Notes under the pieces: model-generated | The model's database searches: none | What the model was told of the DNA's origin: nothing | The model's input: only the letters and a program-made list of their open reading frames with translations | Translations under genes and position numbers: made by a program | Shown: piece by piece, positions 2,985-40,372 of the stretch | Numbering within the stretch: the stretch's first letter is position 1 | How the letters are laid out: each line of letters opens with the position of its first letter | Source: Candidatus Cloacimonadota bacterium | GTDB lineage: Bacteria; Cloacimonadota; Cloacimonadia; Cloacimonadales; TCS61 | DNA length: 45,632 bases | Direction of reading: 5' to 3' | Assembly (NCBI GenBank): GCA_027064945.1 | Contig: JAMOPB010000237.1 | Coordinates: 1 to 45,632, forward strand

Positions 2985-5342
2985 TCAAGAAATTATGAAT
3001 TTAATATCCATATTATTCACATCGAAATGGAAATATGTTGGAACGCTTGTGAGTTGGTCATCTACATTATAATTACCGTTTTCAATTATACTGTCCCATT
3101 TTTCAACAACTAAAGTTTTAGGGCTCTCGACCGTGACTTCATTAATTATATCAGGATACATCTCTTTTATTAATTTAATAATAGATGTTGTATAAATTTC
3201 TATTCCATCGCCTTCATTATCATTCAAATACCCGAGAACTGCAAGACTGATATCAGTTTTAAGGTCAATTAAGGTTAGACCGCTGGAACTTAATGCGTTG
3301 CTATCGTATTTAATTTCAATAGATACTGGATATCTAGCTAACAGATCATTGTTATCGTTTATTTGTACGCCGTCTGCTACGATGTTATCAACATCAATTG
3401 TATTCATTAATGCTTGGTTAATTGATATATTAAAAGCAATTTTATTTTTAAGATCTTTTTCGGATATTATAAAATAATCAACAAAACTGGATTCATATTT
3501 TATATCGTTCGCAAAATTATCATGATATTCTTTTTTAATGAAAGGTAAAAAAAGCAATTTTTCAGTTCCATCTTGGAAAGTATATTTTTTATGATTTTGA
3601 ATTTTCTTCATTACAACAACACTATTTACCACATTATATTCGTGAATATTGTAATTAGTAGAATCATTTCGCAAATTAACGCTATTTATGATTAAATCTT
3701 TATCAAAAAACTTATTGTAAATAAGTTCAGAGCTGCTGATATCAGCACGATAACTATTCGCGCTACTGAGTTCATAGTTACCAACATTACTTTCAATTAT
3801 TAAAGTATAACCTGCTCCAAAAGCATTCGATTCAAAATAAAATGCTTCATTTGTAGCATCCCATTTAATATATAATTCTATATTGATTTCAGGATTTGAG
3901 TTAATTCTTAATATAGTTAATGGAATACGTAGATTATCGTATTTATAATATGATGTTACTTTACCATTATAATCTATATATGTGAGTGGTGAAATAAGTT
4001 GTACTCCATTATATACATATTCAGGATTGATGCACCAGTTATTAGCCGAAAAACAGCTGCTAGTATCTATATTGAGTGTTGTACTTTCAACTATTTCATA
4101 AGTATAAGGATTTCTCAAAATATTATAAACTGATACAATAGGGCTGCTTGTATCTATTTGACGCGAAATAACCGTAGCAAATTTTTTAGTAACTGGATTT
4201 GCAAAATATTTTTCGAAATCAAGTTGTGTGATTAATGAATTTCTTTCAGTAATTTTTTTCAAAATTCCGAATCTAATATCATCAATGCTACTAGCATCTT
4301 GCCCACCGCTTGCTGGAGTTTCTGTTTTTACATTAAGATTTACAGTATTAAATACAATTGTATCATTTGTATTTGTGTCAATTTCATAATAATTTATGTT
4401 TTCAATTTGAGCAAGCCCGCTAGGCACATTACCAGCTGCACCGAGACTGAATTCAACAATAGTTATAACTTCATCATTAGTGGATAATTTATATCCATAT
4501 AATCCGTTACCTAGTGTAAATGTGATATTTTGGTAATCAGTCAAATTAGCGAATATCACTTTTTCAGTAGATGTTGTGTTAAATTTAAAATATTTTAGAT
4601 CAAATTCTTCAAGTTGTGGATAAATATTCGTAATTGCATCAATTGGTAAATGCTCTATTCCTGTTGTGTCGATCGGTGGATTGCTGTTTGTATTGACATA
4701 TGTTTTCATTAAATATAATTGATGTCCTTCAGGTATTGGTATATTGTACGATACATTATCGCCTATATCATATGCCGGAACCACAAACTTATCAACAATT
4801 CTTTCTACTTGTCTTACTTTATCATCTGGAATAATAATAAAGTATGTAGGAGTATTATTATCATCGACACTATCAATTATATCAAGTTGATATGTACCGA
4901 TTCCGTCTGTTAAAGTTGCGGTAATTGCATTTTCCGTAATTTCTACATTTATTTCGCCTTCGATTCTGAAAGCTGCATTATTAATTTCAAAATATGAGAA
5001 AGATGGAACTGTGTACTTTAACTTACGGTTGCTATTAACGGTGACTTTAGGAATCATAAGATAAGAAGTTACTTTAGATGGTAACGCTAAGTTGAAATCA
5101 TATGAATAGACTGATGCATGGAATAACATAGATTTAAAATTCTGTGCTGTAGCTACATTGAATTCTTTAGTAACATATTCATAATATTTTTGTGCGTCAA
5201 ACGCAATATTTGAAAGCATATTGGCCAGCACAGATAGCGCCCCACTTGTTAATAATTTAGTATCTTTAATACCTAGGTTGGTTTGTAAGTCATAATTTAT
5301 CTGTGACAGATATTCTTCTGGCGTGTTTATTAAATTTGCCAT
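2985..5342 (-). CDS. baseplate wedge protein, Baseplate_J / T4 gp6-like
   Basis: 785-aa ORF. The N-terminal ~100 aa (TPEEYLSQINYDLQ..SGALSVLANMLSNIAFDAQKYYEYVTKEF..ATAQNFKSML) follows the pattern I associate with Baseplate_J family proteins. Size and virion context fit. Motif-level only. Confidence 0.45.
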   Translation of the reverse strand: MANLINTPEEYLSQINYDLQTNLGIKDTKLLTSGALSVLANMLSNIAFDAQKYYEYVTKEFNVATAQNFKSMLFHASVYSYDFNLALPSKVTSYLMIPKVTVNSNRKLKYTVPSFSYFEINNAAFRIEGEINVEITENAITATLTDGIGTYQLDIIDSVDDNNTPTYFIIIPDDKVRQVERIVDKFVVPAYDIGDNVSYNIPIPEGHQLYLMKTYVNTNSNPPIDTTGIEHLPIDAITNIYPQLEEFDLKYFKFNTTSTEKVIFANLTDYQNITFTLGNGLYGYKLSTNDEVITIVEFSLGAAGNVPSGLAQIENINYYEIDTNTNDTIVFNTVNLNVKTETPASGGQDASSIDDIRFGILKKITERNSLITQLDFEKYFANPVTKKFATVISRQIDTSSPIVSVYNILRNPYTYEIVESTTLNIDTSSCFSANNWCINPEYVYNGVQLISPLTYIDYNGKVTSYYKYDNLRIPLTILRINSNPEINIELYIKWDATNEAFYFESNAFGAGYTLIIESNVGNYELSSANSYRADISSSELIYNKFFDKDLIINSVNLRNDSTNYNIHEYNVVNSVVVMKKIQNHKKYTFQDGTEKLLFLPFIKKEYHDNFANDIKYESSFVDYFIISEKDLKNKIAFNISINQALMNTIDVDNIVADGVQINDNNDLLARYPVSIEIKYDSNALSSSGLTLIDLKTDISLAVLGYLNDNEGDGIEIYTTSIIKLIKEMYPDIINEVTVESPKTLVVEKWDSIIENGNYNVDDQLTSVPTYFHFDVNNMDIKFIIS

Positions 5343-16405: not shown

Positions 16406-16917
16406 AAAATAACAACCTTTCTAATAGCTTGTTGCAGTTGACTGTACCTAGATGCAGAAAAACTTTTTTAGTCTGCGCGAACCGGTCTGGACGGTTCACT
16501 GCGAATTGTTTTCTAGTTAATAGAAAATAGTAACCTTTCTAATATTATGTTACAGTTGGCAGAACCTAGATGCAGAAAAACTTTTTTAGTCTGCGCAAAC
16601 CGGTTTGATCCCTAGAAACTTTTTTCTAGTAAATAGAAAATAGTAACCTTTCTAATACTATGTTACAGTTGGCAGAACCTAGATGCAGAAAAACTTTTTT
16701 CTAGAGATCATCTCGGTCTGATCTCATTGTTGCGATGAAGTCGCAACAATGAGACGGCCTGTTAGATAACTTCCTTTTAGAAGTTATCTAACCAGTCTGA
16801 TCCCTAGAAACTTTTTTCTAGTTAATAGAAAATAGTAACCTTTCTAATGTTATGTTACAGTTGGCAGAACCTAGATGCAAAAAAACTTTTTTAGTTCGCG
16901 CGAACCGGTCTGGACGG
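16406..16917 (-). repeat. tandem array L: 4 copies of a ~113-118-bp unit (one expanded to 192 bp), reverse complement of array R
   Basis: Core aacctttctaat-NNNN-tgttacagttggcagaacctagatgcagaaaaactttttt begins at 16414, 16532, 16645 and 16837. A degenerate partial copy at 16341-16362 abuts the ATG of 12201-16340. Confidence 0.95.
16722..16792. repeat. double-hairpin module (copy in array L)
   Basis: tctcattgttgcga-tgaag-tcgcaacaatgaga (14-bp stem) followed by gttagataacttcc-tttt-agaagttatctaac (13/14 bp). Confidence 0.9.
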
Positions 16918-16988: not shown

Positions 16989-18773
16989 ATGCAACTAGAT
17001 AATCTAAGTTATGAAGTGCAGGAATATATGAAATGCAAATATAATCCGTTGTACTATATCGAAAATTATGTTAAGATTCCTACACAAGGTGGGCCAGTTC
17101 TGATATCAGAGGCTGGTCTCTGGAAAAAAACAAACAAATATAGACTTGCTATCAAATCTGCTTGGAAATTCAGAAAAGTAATTTTATTGTTTCCTAGACA
17201 GACTGGTAAAACAACGTTGAATGACGCAATTTTATCTCACACTTTGAATTTTTACGAAGGTATCCAAGCGGGGTTCGTATCGATTGATAAAAATAGAGTT
17301 ATGGATTTTATTAGACGATTACAATTTATTTACGACCATTTACCTGTGTTTTTAAAAACACCGCAAAAACGCTCGCTGTCAGATAGAGTAACGTATTTTA
17401 AATTATTAAACGGTTCTCAATTACACACAAGCGGAGTTTCTGGCAACGTTTCAGAATCAGAAGTATTCAGGGGTCTATCTTTAAGTAACTTGATAATAGA
17501 TGAGGCTGCATTTTTAAATATGAATGATTTGTTAACATCTGTTGGTCCAGCATATTCGAAAGCAAGTACAGAAGCAATCAAAGCAGGTAAACCAAGTGCA
17601 TTAATATTAACAACTACACCAAACGGCATTAATGATGGCGGTTTTTATAAAATTATGAGCAATGCAACTTCGATAGAAGAGTTGATAGTAGATCCAAAAG
17701 ATCCACTTTGTGATAAATTAAAATCTGACGAAGAATGTTTCGAAATCTTGAACCAAGAAGGACGTAACGGATATGTACTAGTAAAATTGAATTGGTGGGA
17801 AGTGTTTGATGATCAATGGTATAATCAACAGAAGCAATTATTAAACTTTGATAAAAGAAGAATTGCTCAAGAGATCGATCTTGTATTTTTAGGAAGCAGC
17901 ACATCGGTATTATCAGATGATGTTATTGCAAGAATGAAACCTGCTACACAATATACTGAAAAACAATTATTTAATAATATTAAAATTCATTTTTTCAATG
18001 ATCTTGATCCTGAACATGTGTATTTAATTGGAGTCGACGTAGCTGCATCCAGTGCAGATAGTCAAGCTGCCGATTATAGCGCGCTAGTTGTCTGGGATGC
18101 GACGTTAAATAGACAAGTTGCTGAATTAAAAGTACGAGAACCTGTGTTAAAAAATTATGGGTATGCGATAATTGAATTGATTAAATTTTTAATTAAAATT
18201 GTTAATATACCAGAATGGAATTTAAAATTGGTAATTGAAAGAAACTCGTTTGGATTAGGATTGATTGAACATTTACTATATGATCCAGACTGGGGTGACC
18301 TGATGGCTAGGATCTTGTATAAAAGTAAATTAAGAAATGATTTTGTATACGGGGTACAAGTAACCGCTGCTAATAGACCGCTTATTATTAACGCATTATT
18401 GCAGCTAGTAAACGAGAAGCCAGAATCTATTGTAGGCCCAGAATTAATTAAAGAATTACAAGTTTTAGAACAGAAAAGTAATGGAAGAATCGAAGCAGCA
18501 CGCGGTTTTCATGACGACGTTGTATTCGCCGCTTCACATGCAGTTTATGCTAGAAAAGATTTGATTAAAAGAGGAGAACTCGAAGGAAACCCTGATGAAA
18601 ATTATGGTCCAAGAGTATCACTTGAGCAAATTTTAACAGTTGTTAAAACAGATGATAGTGAGGATGAGCAAGCTGAATTACAAGTAATTGAACATCGCAG
18701 TAATAATTTGGAAGCTGAAAAGAGGGATAGGCAGTTAGAAGTTGAAAAAGCAATATTAAGTATATTAAATTAA
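16989..18773 (+). CDS. terL: terminase large subunit
   Basis: Walker A LFPRQTGKTT, Walker B LIIDEAAF, RNaseH-like nuclease motifs GVDVAASSADSQAADYSALVVWD and GFHDDVVFA. 594 aa. AGGAG SD 6 nt before the ATG. Confidence 0.9.
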   Translation: MQLDNLSYEVQEYMKCKYNPLYYIENYVKIPTQGGPVLISEAGLWKKTNKYRLAIKSAWKFRKVILLFPRQTGKTTLNDAILSHTLNFYEGIQAGFVSIDKNRVMDFIRRLQFIYDHLPVFLKTPQKRSLSDRVTYFKLLNGSQLHTSGVSGNVSESEVFRGLSLSNLIIDEAAFLNMNDLLTSVGPAYSKASTEAIKAGKPSALILTTTPNGINDGGFYKIMSNATSIEELIVDPKDPLCDKLKSDEECFEILNQEGRNGYVLVKLNWWEVFDDQWYNQQKQLLNFDKRRIAQEIDLVFLGSSTSVLSDDVIARMKPATQYTEKQLFNNIKIHFFNDLDPEHVYLIGVDVAASSADSQAADYSALVVWDATLNRQVAELKVREPVLKNYGYAIIELIKFLIKIVNIPEWNLKLVIERNSFGLGLIEHLLYDPDWGDLMARILYKSKLRNDFVYGVQVTAANRPLIINALLQLVNEKPESIVGPELIKELQVLEQKSNGRIEAARGFHDDVVFAASHAVYARKDLIKRGELEGNPDENYGPRVSLEQILTVVKTDDSEDEQAELQVIEHRSNNLEAEKRDRQLEVEKAILSILN

Positions 18774-24493: not shown

Positions 24494-25705
24494 TTAAAAA
24501 GGATTGTTATTTTGAAACTGATTTTTATTGAAATTTGAAGAGCCGAAATTTTTATTGTTTGGTTTGGCGTGTTCTGCTGCTTTACCTTCTTTAAAGAATT
24601 CATTATCACGTCTATTGAGAGCTGGTCTATTTTTACTTTCTTTGCTTATTTGATAAGCAAGATTTCTTAAATCACTGTCTAACTGTTTGCTGAGGTCGTG
24701 TCCGATTCTTACGTATTCCGGATCCTTAGAATTATTAAATGTGTCAATAATTTTTTGAACATTTTCAGAAACTTTGTTTACAACTTCAAGTAATTTATAC
24801 ATATTTTTATCGCGTGCAAGTCTCGCTATGTTGCGGAAAAGCGCCTCATTTAACATACCGCGTTTTAATCCATTTTCGTATACGCCAAACACTTTATCAT
24901 CAACATTACTTGCTTTCATGATTTTATAAAGTGCTTCTAATAATGTGATATAAAATTTAATTATTTTAGAACCTACACATCTCGCATAATCGTATTCTTT
25001 GTGTGAATTTGTAATTTTTTCTATAAATCTTGTAAATTTATTAGATTCTGATGGATTCCAGCCAACGATTTTCTGACATTCGTCAAATAAATCTGCAATT
25101 TCGCGAGCATCAATCATTGATAAAATCTCTTTTTTAGTACCTATACCATATTTATTCAAATCAACAGTAAGGAATTTACCAATTACTCTGCCCGCCATCT
25201 CAAAACCATTGATGATATTCTTTTTATCTTTGTCACTTAATCCTAGTAACACAGTTAATGCAAGAATTGTGGTAACAGCAGCTGGTGCAAAAATGCCTCC
25301 GAGGAAATATCCTGCAGCTCCCGCCAACGAACCTCCTACAACGATACTGCCAACGACAGATTTGATTCCTTCTGAAATTACATCATAAGAAGTGTTTAAT
25401 TTATATTCGATGTCGTATGGAAGTTGTTCATGCTCTGTAATCAATTTATATTTAACATCTAAATATGTTTCTAAAAACAGATGTTCATATATCCAGCTAA
25501 CAATTATTTTTTGTTTATCAGATCTAGTTTTCGCTTCTAAAAACATTTCGTATTCAGGAGACTGGATGAATTCTTTATAAAGGTTATCAACCGGAGGCCT
25601 ATAATCCATGTTTTCAAAAATTGTATTTTCTGATTCGTTAAATTTATTAAAAATTGGTAAATACATTTCATTAAAAATTTTGTATGATAATGTAGATTTA
25701 TTCAT
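24494..25705 (-). CDS. membrane protein with glycine-zipper TM segment (403 aa)
   Basis: VVGSIVVGGSLAGAAGYFLGGIFAPAAVTTILALTVLLGL. AAAGGAAAAATTA before ATG 25705. Confidence 0.5.
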   Translation of the reverse strand: MNKSTLSYKIFNEMYLPIFNKFNESENTIFENMDYRPPVDNLYKEFIQSPEYEMFLEAKTRSDKQKIIVSWIYEHLFLETYLDVKYKLITEHEQLPYDIEYKLNTSYDVISEGIKSVVGSIVVGGSLAGAAGYFLGGIFAPAAVTTILALTVLLGLSDKDKKNIINGFEMAGRVIGKFLTVDLNKYGIGTKKEILSMIDAREIADLFDECQKIVGWNPSESNKFTRFIEKITNSHKEYDYARCVGSKIIKFYITLLEALYKIMKASNVDDKVFGVYENGLKRGMLNEALFRNIARLARDKNMYKLLEVVNKVSENVQKIIDTFNNSKDPEYVRIGHDLSKQLDSDLRNLAYQISKESKNRPALNRRDNEFFKEGKAAEHAKPNNKNFGSSNFNKNQFQNNNPF

Positions 25706-25837: not shown

Positions 25838-25848
25838 GATAGATATTA
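25838..25848 (+). promoter_or_regulatory. GATAGATATTA motif (candidate phage promoter element), instance 1
   Basis: agatagatattaaatagaaaaaataaaa, 25 nt upstream of ATG 25874 and about 55 nt upstream of the hairpin cluster. Confidence 0.35.
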
Positions 25849-25873
25849 AATAGAAAAAATAAAAGGAGAAAGA

Positions 25874-26092
25874 ATGTTTATCAAAATAAATGGATTTTAT
25901 TATAATGAGGCGATTATCGCCTCATTCGGGCCAGACACAGCGGGATCTGGCCCGTGTATCAGATTCAATTTTATCGATGGCAGCAAAGCTGCCATCGAAT
26001 TTCCGTTGTCCAAATACAACGGAAATATAATGGAAGCCGAAAAGGCGCGCAACGCGCGCCTTGGACGCTTATACAAAAAATTATGCCAATAA
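25874..26092 (+). CDS. questionable 72-aa ORF coincident with a GC-rich hairpin cluster
   Basis: Good SD (AAAAGGAGAAAGA-ATG). However, codon usage (GCG/GCC/CCG/CGC/GGG) is atypical for this genome, and five perfect hairpins lie inside it. The mirror ORF on the opposite strand is also open. Confidence 0.3.
   Translation: MFIKINGFYYNEAIIASFGPDTAGSGPCIRFNFIDGSKAAIEFPLSKYNGNIMEAEKARNARLGRLYKKLCQ
25904..26062. other. cluster of five consecutive perfect hairpins in a GC-rich island (candidate structured RNA or DNA element)
   Basis: Stems: 25904-25913/25917-25926 (10 bp), 25927-25935/25946-25954 (9 bp), 25974-25984/25988-25998 (11 bp), 25999-26009/26016-26026 (11 bp), 26042-26050/26054-26062 (9 bp). 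All pairs are Watson-Crick. Confidence 0.85.
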
Positions 26093-26156
26093 AAAACGCG
26101 GTTGCCGGACCGCGAGAACAAAACCGGAGTTAAACTTGTTGTTCATTTTTTTCTTG

Positions 26157-26210
26157 CAAAAAAAAACAAAAAGGTTGCTAGCAGCAGCCAAAACGGTGCT
26201 GCTAGCAACC
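26157..26210 (-). terminator. intrinsic terminator after 26210-26764
   Basis: 14-bp stem ggttgctagcagca (26173-26186)/tgctgctagcaacc (26197-26210). A-run at 26157-26172 on plus. Confidence 0.85.
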
Positions 26211-26764
26211 TATATTTCATATCCATCTTTAAAAGTTTGTTCAAGAATTGATTTGACAAGCGCGTTGTCTGTTGCCTTAGCTGATTCCTGATCGGAAGAA
26301 CCACTACTAACAAGAGCAGTAGCCTCTTCGAATTTCTTAAGAACTTCAAGAAATTTATTTTCATCAGCCGCGGTTTCTGTAGATTTTTTCCATCTGAGAT
26401 AATTGCTGAGTTTATCATTTTGGAGTTTACTTTTTTGATTAACGTAATCCTGTATTAACTTTTCATATTTGATAATTGTATCTGTTACGATTTGCTGTAT
26501 TTCAAGTTGTTTAGAAATAGCTATCTGCAGCTGCGAACGAAGCTTATAATTTTTACTATCGGTAGCTTCAAGCTGTGAATAATTTGTATAAATAAATTTA
26601 TCTAACATTTTCTCTTTATCACGTAAATTTTTAATACGTGTTTCGAGCTCAGCTATTTTATCGTCAATTTCTTGATATATTTTATCAACTTCGTTGTCTA
26701 TTTTACTATAATCAACTACAACTTCGACCTCTTTAATTTTAGCACTCATCATGTACCTTTTCAA
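26210..26764 (-). CDS. coiled-coil hypothetical protein (184 aa)
   Basis: ORF with heptad-like K/E/Q-rich sequence. It overlaps the upstream gene by 26 nt and is followed by a strong terminator. Confidence 0.5.
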   Translation of the reverse strand: MKRYMMSAKIKEVEVVVDYSKIDNEVDKIYQEIDDKIAELETRIKNLRDKEKMLDKFIYTNYSQLEATDSKNYKLRSQLQIAISKQLEIQQIVTDTIIKYEKLIQDYVNQKSKLQNDKLSNYLRWKKSTETAADENKFLEVLKKFEEATALVSSGSSDQESAKATDNALVKSILEQTFKDGYEI

Positions 26765-28355: not shown

Positions 28356-28366
28356 TAATATCTATC
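28356..28366 (-). promoter_or_regulatory. GATAGATATTA motif, instance 3 (minus strand)
   Basis: The minus strand reads cgatagatattagaaaatt, 52 nt upstream of ATG 28304. Confidence 0.35.
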
Positions 28367-30919: not shown

Positions 30920-31049
30920 AAAAAATAAAAAAAGATCATCCCGGGATGATATCATTAAACGCGCAAAAACTAAATTAACATGCGACGGAATTAATGGACC
31001 TTGTATCATAACTTCCAAAAAACAATTTATTTATCCTCCATATCTATAA
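30903..31049 (+). CDS. small basic protein (48 aa) downstream of the spike
   Basis: ATG 30903 overlaps the end of the spike gene. KKNKKRSSR then CDGINGPC. Function unknown. Confidence 0.35.
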   Translation: MEEQNKKNKKRSSRDDIIKRAKTKLTCDGINGPCIITSKKQFIYPPYL

Positions 31050-31060
31050 AGGATTCATTG

Positions 31061-31570
31061 ATGATAATTGGTAACCCTGCTCTTGAAAAACGTTTTTCCA
31101 CTAATGGATTATTTGAAACAAGGCCCAAAGGTGTTATGATATGTGACAGTTGGAATAATGGTGTTTATAAATTTGAACAAACTGCCATCGATACCGCGCG
31201 GCCTGATTGGCCGCGCGTCTGGGATGAATATCTTAAAAAATATTCATTAGTAGATCGCGCATTATTTTTCCCAACTCATTATGTAATAGATACAATTAAC
31301 AATTTACCACAAGTCATTTCTACTCGTCCTTTAAGTTATCGATCATTAATACCTGACTATGAAGAATGGATAACTATTATGATAATTGGAGATAGTAATC
31401 GAGATATTTATACTCCAAGATACTATATGTCAATTGCAGATTTTATAATCAATCCGATTTTTCGAGGAATCCAATCTTGGAAAATGGTGCCTCAACTTGG
31501 TAAAAATGTAGTTTTAAAAAATCTGGGTAGCGGTTTTGTACCTCAAATGCTTGAAAAATATTTGCATTAA
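31061..31570 (+). CDS. hypothetical protein, possible Amidase_2/PGRP-like fold (degenerate)
   Basis: ATG 31061 with AAAGGA 6 nt upstream. KGVMICDS...THYVIDTINNLPQVISTRP...WITIMIIGDSN..YTPRYYMSIADFI parallels the T7-lysozyme-type order of strands, but the zinc ligands are not conserved. Confidence 0.3.
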   Translation: MIIGNPALEKRFSTNGLFETRPKGVMICDSWNNGVYKFEQTAIDTARPDWPRVWDEYLKKYSLVDRALFFPTHYVIDTINNLPQVISTRPLSYRSLIPDYEEWITIMIIGDSNRDIYTPRYYMSIADFIINPIFRGIQSWKMVPQLGKNVVLKNLGSGFVPQMLEKYLH

Positions 31571-39235: not shown

Positions 39236-39383
39236 GAAAACAATTCACAGTGAACCGTCCAGACCGGGATGATATCTAGAAAAAAGTTTTTCTGCATCTA
39301 GGTTCTGCCAACTGTAACAAGCTATTAGAAAGGTTGTTATTTTAAAACAACAAACTGAAAAACTAGTTTGGTCGTCTAGACTA

Positions 39384-39454
39384 GTTAGATAACTTCCTTT
39401 TGGAAGTTATCTAACAGGCCATCTCATTGTTACGACTTCATCGTAACAATGAGA
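39384..39454. repeat. double-hairpin module (array R copy 1)
   Basis: gttagataacttcc-tttt-ggaagttatctaac and tctcattgttAcga-cttca-tcgTaacaatgaga, both perfect 14-bp stems. Confidence 0.9.
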
Positions 39455-39696
39455 TCAGACCGGGATGATACCTAGAAAAAAGTTTTTCTGCATCTAGGTT
39501 CTGCCAACTGTAACAAGCTATTAGAAAGGTTGTTATTTTAAAACAGTAAACTGAAAAACTAATTTGGATGATCAGACCGGGATGATACCTAGAAAAAAGT
39601 TTTTCTGCATCTAGGTTCTGCCAACTGTAACAAGCTATTAGAAAGGTTGTTATTTTAAAACTGCAAACTGAAAAACTAGTTTGGACGATCAGACTA

Positions 39697-39767
39697 GTTA
39701 GATAACTTCCAAAAGGAAGTTATCTAACAGGCCGTCTCATTGTTGCGACTTCATCGCAACAATGAGA
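39697..39767. repeat. double-hairpin module (array R copy 2)
   Basis: gttagataacttcc-aaaa-ggaagttatctaac and tctcattgttGcga-cttca-tcgCaacaatgaga. Flanked by 8-nt direct repeats gatcagac at 39687-39694 and 39766-39773. Confidence 0.9.
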
Positions 39768-40056
39768 TCAGACCGGGATGATATCTAGAAAAAAGTTTTT
39801 CTGCATCTAGGTTCTGCCAACTGTAACAAGCTATTAGAAAGGTTGTTATTTTAAAACTGCAAACTGAAAAACTAGTTTGGACGATCAGACCGGGATGATA
39901 TCTAGAAAAAAGTTTTTCTGCATCTAGGTTCTGCCAACTGTAACAAGCTATTAGAAAGGTTGATTTTTAATATCAGATAATTTGTCAAATTTAAAAAAGA
40001 ACTGGGAGAAAATAAACACCAATTTCTATATATTCTTTAATAATTAAAATAAGTTA

Positions 40057-40067
40057 GATAGATATTA
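40057..40067 (+). promoter_or_regulatory. GATAGATATTA motif, instance 2
   Basis: agatagatattataataagaaaaataaaa, about 47 nt upstream of the rod hairpin at 40114. About 30 nt are similar to instance 1, with 2 indels. Confidence 0.35.
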
Positions 40068-40113
40068 TAATAAGAAAAATAAAAAAATAAATAAAATAAA
40101 TAAAATAATTTTG

Positions 40114-40208
40114 CCTCGAAGCTGGTTACAGAGCCTAGGGGCTGGGAGAGAGGCGACCGCGCGGCGCGTACTCTCTCAGTCTCGCGGGCTGCTGAGCCAG
40201 CTTCGAGG
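40114..40208 (+). other. 95-nt GC-rich rod-like hairpin in the 5' leader of the plus-strand block (processing site, attenuator or ncRNA candidate)
   Basis: Outer stem cctcgaagctgg/ccagcttcgagg (12 bp). Inner stem ctg..gagagag (40142-40152)/ctctctcag (40171-40179). A-rich tract upstream and ttatttatttttt downstream. Confidence 0.7.
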
Positions 40209-40240
40209 GATCGTTATTTATTTTTTAAAGGAGAAAAAAA

Positions 40241-40372
40241 ATGAAAATTAAAAAACGCGATTGGAATATCGTAGCCATAGCTCGTGGCGAAATTAATGCA
40301 CGCCCAAAAGTAGTGCATTCTAAGAAAAAATATTCACGCAAATTAAAACATAAAAAGCGTGAATATTTCTAA
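40241..40372 (+). CDS. 43-aa highly basic peptide (MKIKKRDWNIVAIARGEINARPKVVHSKKKYSRKLKHKKREYF), speculative ArfA-like tail
   Basis: Not in the ORF track because it is under 60 aa. AAAGGAG 8 nt upstream of ATG 40241. The C-terminal K/R tail resembles KGKGSYxRKxKH of ArfA-type ribosome rescue factors (from memory). Internal 7-bp hairpin at 40295-40319. Confidence 0.4.
   Translation: MKIKKRDWNIVAIARGEINARPKVVHSKKKYSRKLKHKKREYF

Follow-up and report, generated by a model that had tools for sequence, protein, structure and literature searches.

A small coding gene studded with perfect hairpins in an exchangeable cassette of a phage genome

What is the GC-rich, hairpin-packed island at positions 25874-26125 of contig JAMOPB010000237.1, and does the small open reading frame (ORF) that runs through it encode a protein? 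The window analysed here, meaning the whole stretch of 45,632 nucleotides (nt), is part of a genome of about 66 kb, that of a phage which probably comes from a hydrothermal vent. The island lies between two minus-strand operons, and a preliminary description of the locus had taken its ORF of 72 amino acids (aa) for an illusion produced by palindromes. Judging by how the ORF has evolved and by its setting among related contigs, we conclude that it is a genuine protein-coding gene, carried as cargo by a moron-like cassette that occupies a variable slot bordered by conserved genes on both sides. The explanation that we hold with moderate confidence is that of an accessory coding cassette whose hairpins are heat-stable and under selection and most likely function within the mRNA. 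The features on which the question turns are the following.

25874-26092, plus strand: 72-aa protein-coding ORF, cargo of the cassette and an ORFan (called from the ORF list, one homologue and the ratio of non-synonymous to synonymous divergence, dN/dS)
25904-25926, no strand assigned: hairpin 1, AATGAGGCGA-TTA-TCGCCTCATT, 10 bp, perfect
25927-25954, no strand assigned: hairpin 2, CGGGCCAGA-(10 nt)-TCTGGCCCG, 9 bp, perfect
25974-25998, no strand assigned: hairpin 3, TCGATGGCAGC-AAA-GCTGCCATCGA, 11 bp, perfect
25999-26026, no strand assigned: hairpin 4, ATTTCCGTTGT-CCAAAT-ACAACGGAAAT, 11 bp, perfect
26042-26062, no strand assigned: hairpin 5, AAGGCGCGC-AAC-GCGCGCCTT, 9 bp, perfect

Hairpins within a coding sequence

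All five hairpins listed in the preliminary description are present and perfect, with stems of 10, 9, 11, 11 and 9 bp at exactly the coordinates given there. They are packed into 160 nt, and no spacer base separates hairpin 1 from hairpin 2 or hairpin 3 from hairpin 4; by our own calculation, chance would supply about 0.005 such hairpins (9 bp or longer) per 160 random bases. Folded as plus-strand RNA, the region 25874-26125 reaches −104 kcal/mol compared to −61.1 ± 4.4 kcal/mol for 200 dinucleotide shuffles (z = −9.8). No shuffle came as low, and the comparison that had been proposed as a check thus bears out the extreme folding. The minus-strand RNA scores z = −8.2, and folding with DNA parameters gives z = −11.3. 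When the protein was held fixed and synonymous codons were shuffled, most of the excess folding was destroyed (z = −5.9 for the 72-aa ORF). Among 104 tiles of 219 nt across the window (mean z = −0.73, sd 1.9) the island tile is the lowest, at z = −9.5. The window has 0.57 perfect hairpins of 9 bp or more per kb (0.46 once the island is left out), and related contigs of 2.8-13 kb have 0.24-0.71 per kb; in these contigs, as in the rest of the window, they are mostly intergenic and terminator-like. No second hairpin cluster was found in the window or in the nine related and other loci scanned.

The deviant composition of the island can be traced to the hairpins themselves. GC content in 100-nt windows is 0.43-0.49 over the island compared to about 0.17-0.35 in the flanks. 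The contrast drawn in the preliminary description therefore holds, although the value for the whole ORF (0.42) is somewhat below its estimate of about 50%. GC makes up 60% of the stems but 28% of the remaining ORF, a value equal to the phage background; it is thus the GC-rich stems that make the GC island, with the linkers keeping the phage's own composition. At third codon positions, GC content (GC3) is likewise higher in stems (22/33) than outside (13/39, p = 0.009). In silico, the hairpins of this and of the other studded ORFs described below are predicted to stay folded at 60-75°C. The Rfam and BLASTN searches called for by the preliminary description returned neither a family nor a phage match: no Rfam family reached its gathering score anywhere in the window, with sub-threshold noise only on the island at E up to 10, and BLASTN of the region against 50,697 phage records found nothing. 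A scan for tRNA and tmRNA was also negative.

A search of 5.8 billion proteins identified a single homologue of the 72-aa protein, with 83% amino-acid identity; its contig, L001, measures 817 bp and shows synteny with the window. All dN/dS and stem-divergence figures given here derive from this one pair of sequences. Between the two genes there are 38 nucleotide differences, which fall 4/10/24 on the three codon positions (chi-square p = 2.4e-4). Of these, 22 are synonymous (over 45.5 sites) and 16 non-synonymous (over 170.5 sites), corresponding to a dN/dS of 0.13 and a synonymous divergence (dS) of 0.78. Plus frame 0 is the only one of the six frames open in both sequences. A 73-aa minus-strand mirror ORF does accompany the 72-aa plus-strand ORF in the window, as had been pointed out, and it is interrupted by a stop codon in L001. 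Since the third positions of the two mirror frames coincide, periodicity alone cannot choose the strand; we chose the plus strand on the basis of the stop in the mirror ORF, the Shine-Dalgarno sequence and the cassette boundaries. The view of the ORF as a masquerade is hence contradicted by the only shared open frame, its dN/dS and codon periodicity, the Shine-Dalgarno sequence and a start-to-stop exchange in a sister phage (see below). That dense hairpins are compatible with coding is shown by a bona fide csx3 gene built in the same way. As a caution for annotation, mirror ORFs and extreme folding do not exclude a coding function.

Despite the extent of synonymous divergence, the corresponding region of L001 still folds at z = −7.2. 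There, the individual hairpins have fared as follows.

Hairpin 1: a 5-bp GC core, GAGGC/GCCTC, left after two synonymous transitions
Hairpin 2: 8 pairs, one of them G-U
Hairpin 3: replaced by ATTCACAGACGGCA-GCAC-TGCTGTCTGTGAAT, a 14-bp stem with one G-U
Hairpin 4: 8-bp core kept
Hairpin 5: stem identical with its 9 pairs, the loop alone differing (N to D)
Hairpin 6 (in the 3′ module described below): 5-6 pairs kept

Hairpins 1, 2, 4 and 5 thus persist as stems of 5-9 pairs at a dS of 0.78, suggesting that the structure is probably selected. Degenerate third positions have changed at 7/33 sites in stems and at 16/37 outside (p = 0.07), or at 4/26 and 15/36, respectively, when hairpin 3 is left out (p = 0.049). 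Together with the stem GC and GC3 and a cluster far beyond chance, these counts agree with the earlier suggestion that the structure itself is under selection. At hairpin 3 the register in L001 is shifted by three positions, and nine substitutions across both arms, five of which change an amino acid, each fit the register of their own sequence. Since the stem has been rebuilt in a shifted register, what is maintained at this site appears to be a hairpin as such and not one particular sequence. The pattern of change is of the kind that template-switch mutation produces, a mechanism able to create a perfect stem in a single event (PMC8794818). Hairpins 1, 2, 4 and 5 have no T run and so are not intrinsic terminators; hairpin 3 was considered as an internal terminator and rejected, being only a weak match that is not conserved in L001.

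Cassette architecture and its recurrence

The island stands in a slot bounded by two conserved genes, with candidate expression signals on either side of the ORF.

24494-25705, minus strand: conserved 403-aa gene, one boundary of the slot; homologues of 39-77% identity in L002, L003, L004, L007 and L008
25838-25853, plus strand: promoter-like motif GATAGATATTAAATAG; the 72-aa ORF has its ATG 20 nt downstream
25863-25868, plus strand: Shine-Dalgarno sequence AAGGAG with a 5-nt spacing to the ATG; both L001 and L002 conserve it
26096-26151, plus strand: conserved 56-nt 3′ module with hairpin 6, a stem GAACAA/TTGTTC and a T run at 26146-26152
26097-26114: hairpin 6, CGCGGT-TGCCGG-ACCGCG, 6 bp, inside the 3′ module
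26172-26211, minus strand: 15-bp hairpin, then TTTTTGTTTTTTTTT on the minus strand; probably terminates the minus-strand operon lying upstream (genes 28304 to 26210)
26210-26764, minus strand: conserved 184-aa gene, the other boundary of the slot; homologues in L002, L003, L007 and L008

Related contigs, some of which come from a hydrothermal-vent metagenome, were reached through homologues of the neighbouring 403-aa protein. The gene order 521 aa-184 aa-403 aa is conserved among these relatives, and the space between the 184-aa and 403-aa genes is occupied differently.

L003: no insert, 44 nt between the two genes
L007: no insert, 87 nt between the two genes
L008 (5138-5730; a distant relative, on a 113-kb contig of a metagenome-assembled genome, MAG): tRNAs Ser-TGA, Asn-GTT, Gln-TTG and Asp-GTC and a 64-aa ORF
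L002 and L010: an unrelated 119-aa ORF on the opposite strand

The closest comparison is between L001 and L002. Their flanks are near-identical (about 97%, a figure estimated from the alignment rather than computed by a tool), and between them the cargo is exchanged, a 72-aa ORF in the one and the unrelated 119-aa ORF in the other, with boundaries running exactly from start codon to stop codon. Both contigs have the same sequence upstream (GATAGATATTAAATAG and the Shine-Dalgarno sequence) and downstream of their different cargo. At the position of the hairpin at 26172-26211, both carry a hairpin of different sequence.

The promoter-like motif is identical in L001 and nearly identical in L002. 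Its 11-nt core, GATAGATATTA, had been noticed upstream of both the island and a rod-like hairpin at 40114, and we find exact copies at these two places (25838-25848 and 40057-40067, both plus strand) and a third at 28356-28366 (minus strand); all three are intergenic and face the downstream gene. Allowing one mismatch, there are eight matches in the window compared to 2.55 expected, a number that none of 100 shuffles reached. The full 16-nt motif with three mismatches is not significantly enriched in the window, whereas its core is. Given the three gene-facing intergenic copies and the excess over shuffles, GATAGATATTA is a plausible phage promoter element.

The 6-bp hairpin that had been counted as a sixth member of the island is present at 26097-26114, but it belongs to the conserved 56-nt terminator module and not to the island. 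The module recurs nearly identically behind the unrelated 119-aa ORF of L002 and L010. Read on the minus strand, hairpin 6 runs into TTTTTT and thus looks like a terminator; on the cargo strand, a second stem and a T run follow hairpin 6. Promoter and terminator activity of the cassette flanks would be predicted from these features at the level of consensus. In all four copies of the module the hairpin 6 loop UGCCGG and a downstream ACCGGAG are invariant, and the two could pair (CCGG with CCGG) as a pseudoknot. Occurrences of hairpin 6 as an 18-mer in IMG/VR, and of the flank pattern in L011, were dismissed as chance matches in GC-rich DNA.

Phage morons are reportedly, as Hendrix and colleagues have it, extra transcription units lying between conserved genes. 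The cassette resembles them in consisting of one small gene with promoter- and terminator-like signals, of deviant composition, between genes that are adjacent in relatives. It differs in that the deviant composition is confined to the stems and does not come from a foreign donor. There is also a likeness to the PeSL cassettes of T4-like phages, where short conserved regulatory flanks surround hypervariable small ORFs and serve as exchange points (PMC2839356, PMC4122927): here too, unrelated ORFs stand between the same short flanks (L001 compared to L002 and L010, and the window compared to the 3′ module of contig L012, described below). However, the present cassette belongs to another phage lineage and has no sequence relation to PeSL, its promoter, Shine-Dalgarno and terminator signals flank a single ORF slot, and the island hairpins lie inside coding sequence whereas those of PeSL are intergenic. 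Since the region had no match in the phage collection and PHROGs matched the terminase alone, the resemblance is one of function only. ORF-exact swapping of cassettes between fixed expression signals is thereby seen outside T4-like phages.

Does the hairpin-studded build recur elsewhere? A metagenome scan with the 3′ module led to contig L012, an identical copy of which (L016, JAMORJ010000072.1) is binned in a Nautiliaceae MAG. The 56-nt module, at 87.5% identity, is all that L012 has in common with the window. In L012 it lies behind a gene for a Csx3/Crn3 ring nuclease (PF09620, E = 7.5e-27; 99 aa), which forms a 55% GC island in a contig of 25% GC and is hairpin-studded, with z = −8 to −9.3. 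Enzymes of this class degrade the type III CRISPR messenger cA4 (PMC7371418, PMC12409355). Viruses employ ring nucleases of this sort to counter CRISPR. Four further cassette genes were compared with dinucleotide shuffles.

L014 csx3 (hydrothermal-vent metagenome): z = −9.7, studded
L013 72-aa ORFan (its protein unrelated to that of the window): z = −9.4, studded
L013 csx3: z = −1.7, unstudded
L002 119-aa ORF: z about −2, unstudded

The csx3 genes of L012 and L014 and the ORFan of L013 also fold better (z = −6.6 to −7.5) than controls in which synonymous codons were shuffled. Each studded ORF has its first GC-rich helix beginning at nt 31-54. An alignment of the three Csx3 proteins has no gaps at shared stems, except for a single-residue gap beside one stem of L012; from this nearly gap-free alignment of studded and unstudded homologues, the csx3 stems would have arisen by substitution and not by insertion. 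Leaders of the form ATTAAATAG-N(about 10)-AAGGAG precede the cassettes of L012, L013 and L014, and in both L012 and L013 small cassettes that have similar leaders are strung into arrays. The L012 array (3880-5060) comprises the Csx3/Crn3 gene and two shorter ORFs: one of 43 aa, which contains a 13-bp hairpin and whose end overlaps a 19-bp terminator, and one of 41 aa, which contains GGCAGCAA-AAA-TTGCTGCC. If L012, which is binned with the Nautiliaceae MAG, is viral, its ring nuclease would be a candidate anti-type-III-CRISPR gene.

Explanations for the hairpins

Why would a small gene be written as a row of hairpins? In the explanation that we favour, a moron-type cassette is inserted in reverse orientation between two conserved phage genes; it consists of the 72-aa ORF, with the phage promoter motif GATAGATATTAAATAG and a strong Shine-Dalgarno sequence ahead of it and the 56-nt terminator module behind. 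Five GC-rich stem-loops are overlaid on its coding sequence by way of synonymous sites and the more tolerant residues, beginning only beyond the first 30 nt and leaving the ribosome-loading region open. The hairpins were most likely made and repaired by template-switch-type multi-base mutations and then kept by selection, and the body of the short transcript would form a chain of hairpins predicted in silico to be folded at 55-75°C. The presumed benefit may be protection from RNases or from pairing with antisense or guide RNAs, or a tuning of expression. The host is likely a thermophile, an assignment that derives only from the binning of L012. Cultured Nautiliaceae grow at about 45-60°C. The occurrence of a hairpin overlay in unrelated cassettes of related AT-rich phages points to selection for structure shaping the choice of codons and even of amino acids. 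If the hairpins stabilise or shield transcripts, be it from heat or from RNA-targeting immunity, they would represent a new and testable principle of phage gene design, and hairpin studding would be a useful marker of accessory and anti-defence genes in thermophile viromes.

Several observations weigh against this explanation. All 50 stem pairs of the window island are Watson-Crick, with no G-U, which fits an origin or function at the DNA level equally well. Neither G-U content nor the comparison of sense with antisense folding discriminates between RNA and DNA level, unstudded ORFs showing the same asymmetry. The excess of constraint in stems is marginal (p about 0.05-0.07) and comes from only two sequences of the 72-aa gene, and the GC3 enrichment of predicted helices is partly circular where stems are taken from folding predictions. 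The 119-aa ORF of L002 and the csx3 gene of L013 sit unstudded in cassettes of this same type, so expression from it does not require hairpins. Finally, the 72-aa protein has no known family or fold.

Of the alternatives, a non-coding structured RNA with a palindrome-made, illusory ORF, as put forward in the preliminary description, would account for the mirror ORFs open on both strands, the extreme folding and a protein without known family. It is very improbable in view of the three-base periodicity and low dN/dS, the interruption of the mirror ORF in L001, the conserved and ideally spaced Shine-Dalgarno sequence, the ORF-exact swap with a 119-aa ORF on the same translation signals, the lack of any Rfam family at the scores given above and the real csx3 genes that share the architecture. 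Hairpins can also reach coding sequences by insertion: Rickettsia palindromic elements, yeast mitochondrial GC clusters, double-hairpin elements and REP/BIME are families of related repeats that spread in this way. The likeness to the island is that GC-rich hairpins, some of them abutting in pairs, stand in an AT-rich genome and leave a reading frame open. The in-frame insertion of selfish GC-rich palindromes (REP, MITE, Rickettsia palindromic element or mitochondrial GC cluster) into an older AT-rich gene would explain why GC-rich hairpin segments alternate with AT-rich linkers, and why hairpins 1 and 2 together (51 nt) and hairpin 5 (21 nt) span frame-compatible multiples of three. However, hairpins 3 and 4 together span 53 nt, and the five sequences are unrelated and unique, with only chance matches of 8-12 nt elsewhere in the window and 18 loci and no copies in IMG/VR or JGI as far as protein-pattern searches can tell. 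The csx3 homologues moreover show no insertions at shared stems, the single-residue gap aside, their stems arising by substitution. We regard such insertion as exceedingly improbable. A role at the DNA level, with cruciforms or single-stranded DNA hairpins acting as a replication or primosome site, as a recombination hot spot for cassette exchange or as N4-type promoters, draws on palindromes that are perfect and fold equally well on both strands, on three loops of 3 nt and on the slot being a site of cassette exchange. Yet the element is absent from close relatives (L002, L003, L007) and hence not essential for replication. It also lies off the extreme of cumulative GC skew, whose minimum is near 36-39.5 kb, close to a tandem-repeat region, so that the origin or primosome candidate of the preliminary description is unlikely. 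The exchange junctions lie in the conserved flanks and not at the hairpins, which are mutually unrelated in sequence and have no common flanking motif. Compared with N4-type hairpin promoters (stems of 5-7 bp, a 3-nt loop, a conserved promoter sequence and a virion RNA polymerase gene), the island has stems of 9-11 bp, only three loops of 3 nt and no sequence common to its hairpins, in a window that covers only part of the genome. The stem-free first 30 nt of each studded ORF make sense for an mRNA and not for DNA, and palindromes are a liability for phages, since they trigger DdmABC/Lamassu (PMC11707656). A DNA-level role is thus distinctly doubtful.

The hairpins might instead be a functionless by-product of mutation, perfect inverted repeats generated as the phage replicates, through frequent intrastrand template switching, and persisting only where a small accessory protein tolerates them. 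The stems are perfectly Watson-Crick, the block of nine coordinated changes and the shifted register at hairpin 3 are the footprint of a template switch (PMC8794818), and other cargo genes in the same kind of cassette do without hairpins. As with the template-switch hairpins described in rRNA genes (PMC8794818), reverse-complement arms are perfect and changes at hairpin 3 are multi-base and coordinated; in contrast to those, the changes here lie in a protein gene, alter amino acids and are seen in two sequences only. The copying of local sequence would not, however, yield stems of such enriched GC and GC3 (67% in stems, 33% outside), nor does a dN/dS of 0.13 suit a weakly constrained ORF. Synonymous divergence is lower in stems than outside, the GC cores have survived a dS of 0.78, and the window's 45 kb hold no comparable cluster, intergenic DNA included. 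We therefore consider a mere by-product unlikely, while retaining template switching as the probable source of the hairpins in our favoured explanation.

Could the studded build instead serve against host defences, its transcript shielded from type III or VI CRISPR, Argonaute or abortive-infection RNases, or acting as a decoy RNA? The same 3′ module and studded build stand on a phage-type contig with a Csx3/Crn3 ring nuclease, a second csx3 gene is equally studded, and the 72-aa gene occupies an accessory slot. This is an argument by association alone: the 72-aa protein belongs to no defence or anti-defence family, the stems cover only about 46% of the ORF, the csx3 gene of L013 is unstudded, and we found no paper on evasion of type III CRISPR through target structure. 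As a device of this kind the island is improbable; the link to a type III CRISPR ring nuclease makes an anti-defence context plausible but unproven. A wider version, in which phages of thermophilic vent Campylobacterota write heat-stable, GC-rich hairpin 'armour' into some of their small swappable accessory genes (two unrelated 72-aa ORFans and two Csx3/Crn3 genes), made by template switching and kept by selection because it guards the transcripts from RNA-guided immunity (type III CRISPR) or from host or abortive-infection RNases, is a speculative proposal that we offer tentatively. If true, the armour would add to phage counter-defence a layer not described before, one that is encoded in synonymous sites. 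The genome hairpins of single-stranded RNA phages such as MS2 serve packaging, regulation and nuclease protection. As in such genomes, coding sequence in the island doubles as a dense chain of local hairpins under selection; the island, in contrast, is a single small gene of a double-stranded-DNA tailed phage. Phage palindromes such as the RNase III sites of T7, which are intergenic RNA-processing sites, trigger Lamassu/DdmABC, and this known liability makes the retention of hairpins in the island more notable (PMC11707656). The island shares with T7 sites the stable stem-loop-forming palindromes in a phage genome, but its hairpins lie in coding sequence, with no sign of RNase III processing or of sensing by the host.

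The encoded protein and other structured sites

AlphaFold2 models the 72-aa protein as five strands and a C-terminal helix, with a confidence score (pLDDT) of 65. Foldseek against PDB and BFVD and a sequence search against solved structures found no significant match to it. Pfam, PHROGs and PADLOC assigned no family to the 72-aa protein or its neighbours, and specifically no defence or anti-defence homology to the former; only TerL was recognised elsewhere in the window, its gene at 16989-18773 indicating a double-stranded-DNA tailed phage. An exhaustive HMMER search over 1.84 billion proteins yielded two weak matches, of which an FN3-repeat protein was judged spurious. The other, P0004, is a 157-aa metagenomic repeat protein (L018, 636-1109) that has an RFxxxDGxxKAxxYPxxYN-like motif in common with the 72-aa protein: residues 30-51 of the latter (RFNFIDGSKAAIEFPLSKYNGN; window 25961-26026) resemble a motif present three times in P0004 (library-wide E = 3.4e-4). 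Two of its three repeats carry a stem of 6-7 bp (ATGGAAC/GTTCCAT and ATGGCA/TGCCAT) over the DG...P(Y) codons. The P0004 gene as a whole is not hairpin-rich (z = −1.5) and, its homology being uncertain, was not used as a decisive test. Neither the 72-aa ORF nor its 403-aa neighbour was found when IMG/VR and the JGI metagenomes were scanned with protein patterns.

Other sites in the window are also structured. At 39260-39970, near the cumulative GC-skew minimum (about 36-39.5 kb), units of about 117 and 313 nt that are 94-96% identical form a tandem array around CAGACCGGGATGATA...GGTTCTGCCAACTGTAACAAGC..., and some of these units contain a pair of 14-15-bp hairpins. This array could be an origin or a regulatory RNA array. 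A pair of perfect 13-15-bp hairpins (GTTAGATAACTTCC... and TCTCATTGTTGCGA...) occurs at intergenic 16722-16792, 39384-39455 and 39697-39767, once in inverted order, and the same pair is found in L002 (300-370) upstream of a 519-aa gene.

In the segment 40057-40372, a rod-like, GC-rich stem about 95 nt long (about 40113-40210) begins about 46 nt after GATAGATATTA. Next come a Shine-Dalgarno sequence and an ORF of 43 aa, very basic in composition (40241-40372; phrog_18092, unknown function). In its 3′ half this ORF carries a perfect 12-bp stem, GAATATTCACGC/GCGTGAATATTC, and the 219-nt tile from 40297 scores z = −6.8. At 31195-31217, a lone 9-bp hairpin of 100% GC, CGCGCGGCC-TGATT-GGCCGCGCG, lies inside the plus-strand ORF 31001-31570 and may be a single case of the same in-ORF hairpin habit.

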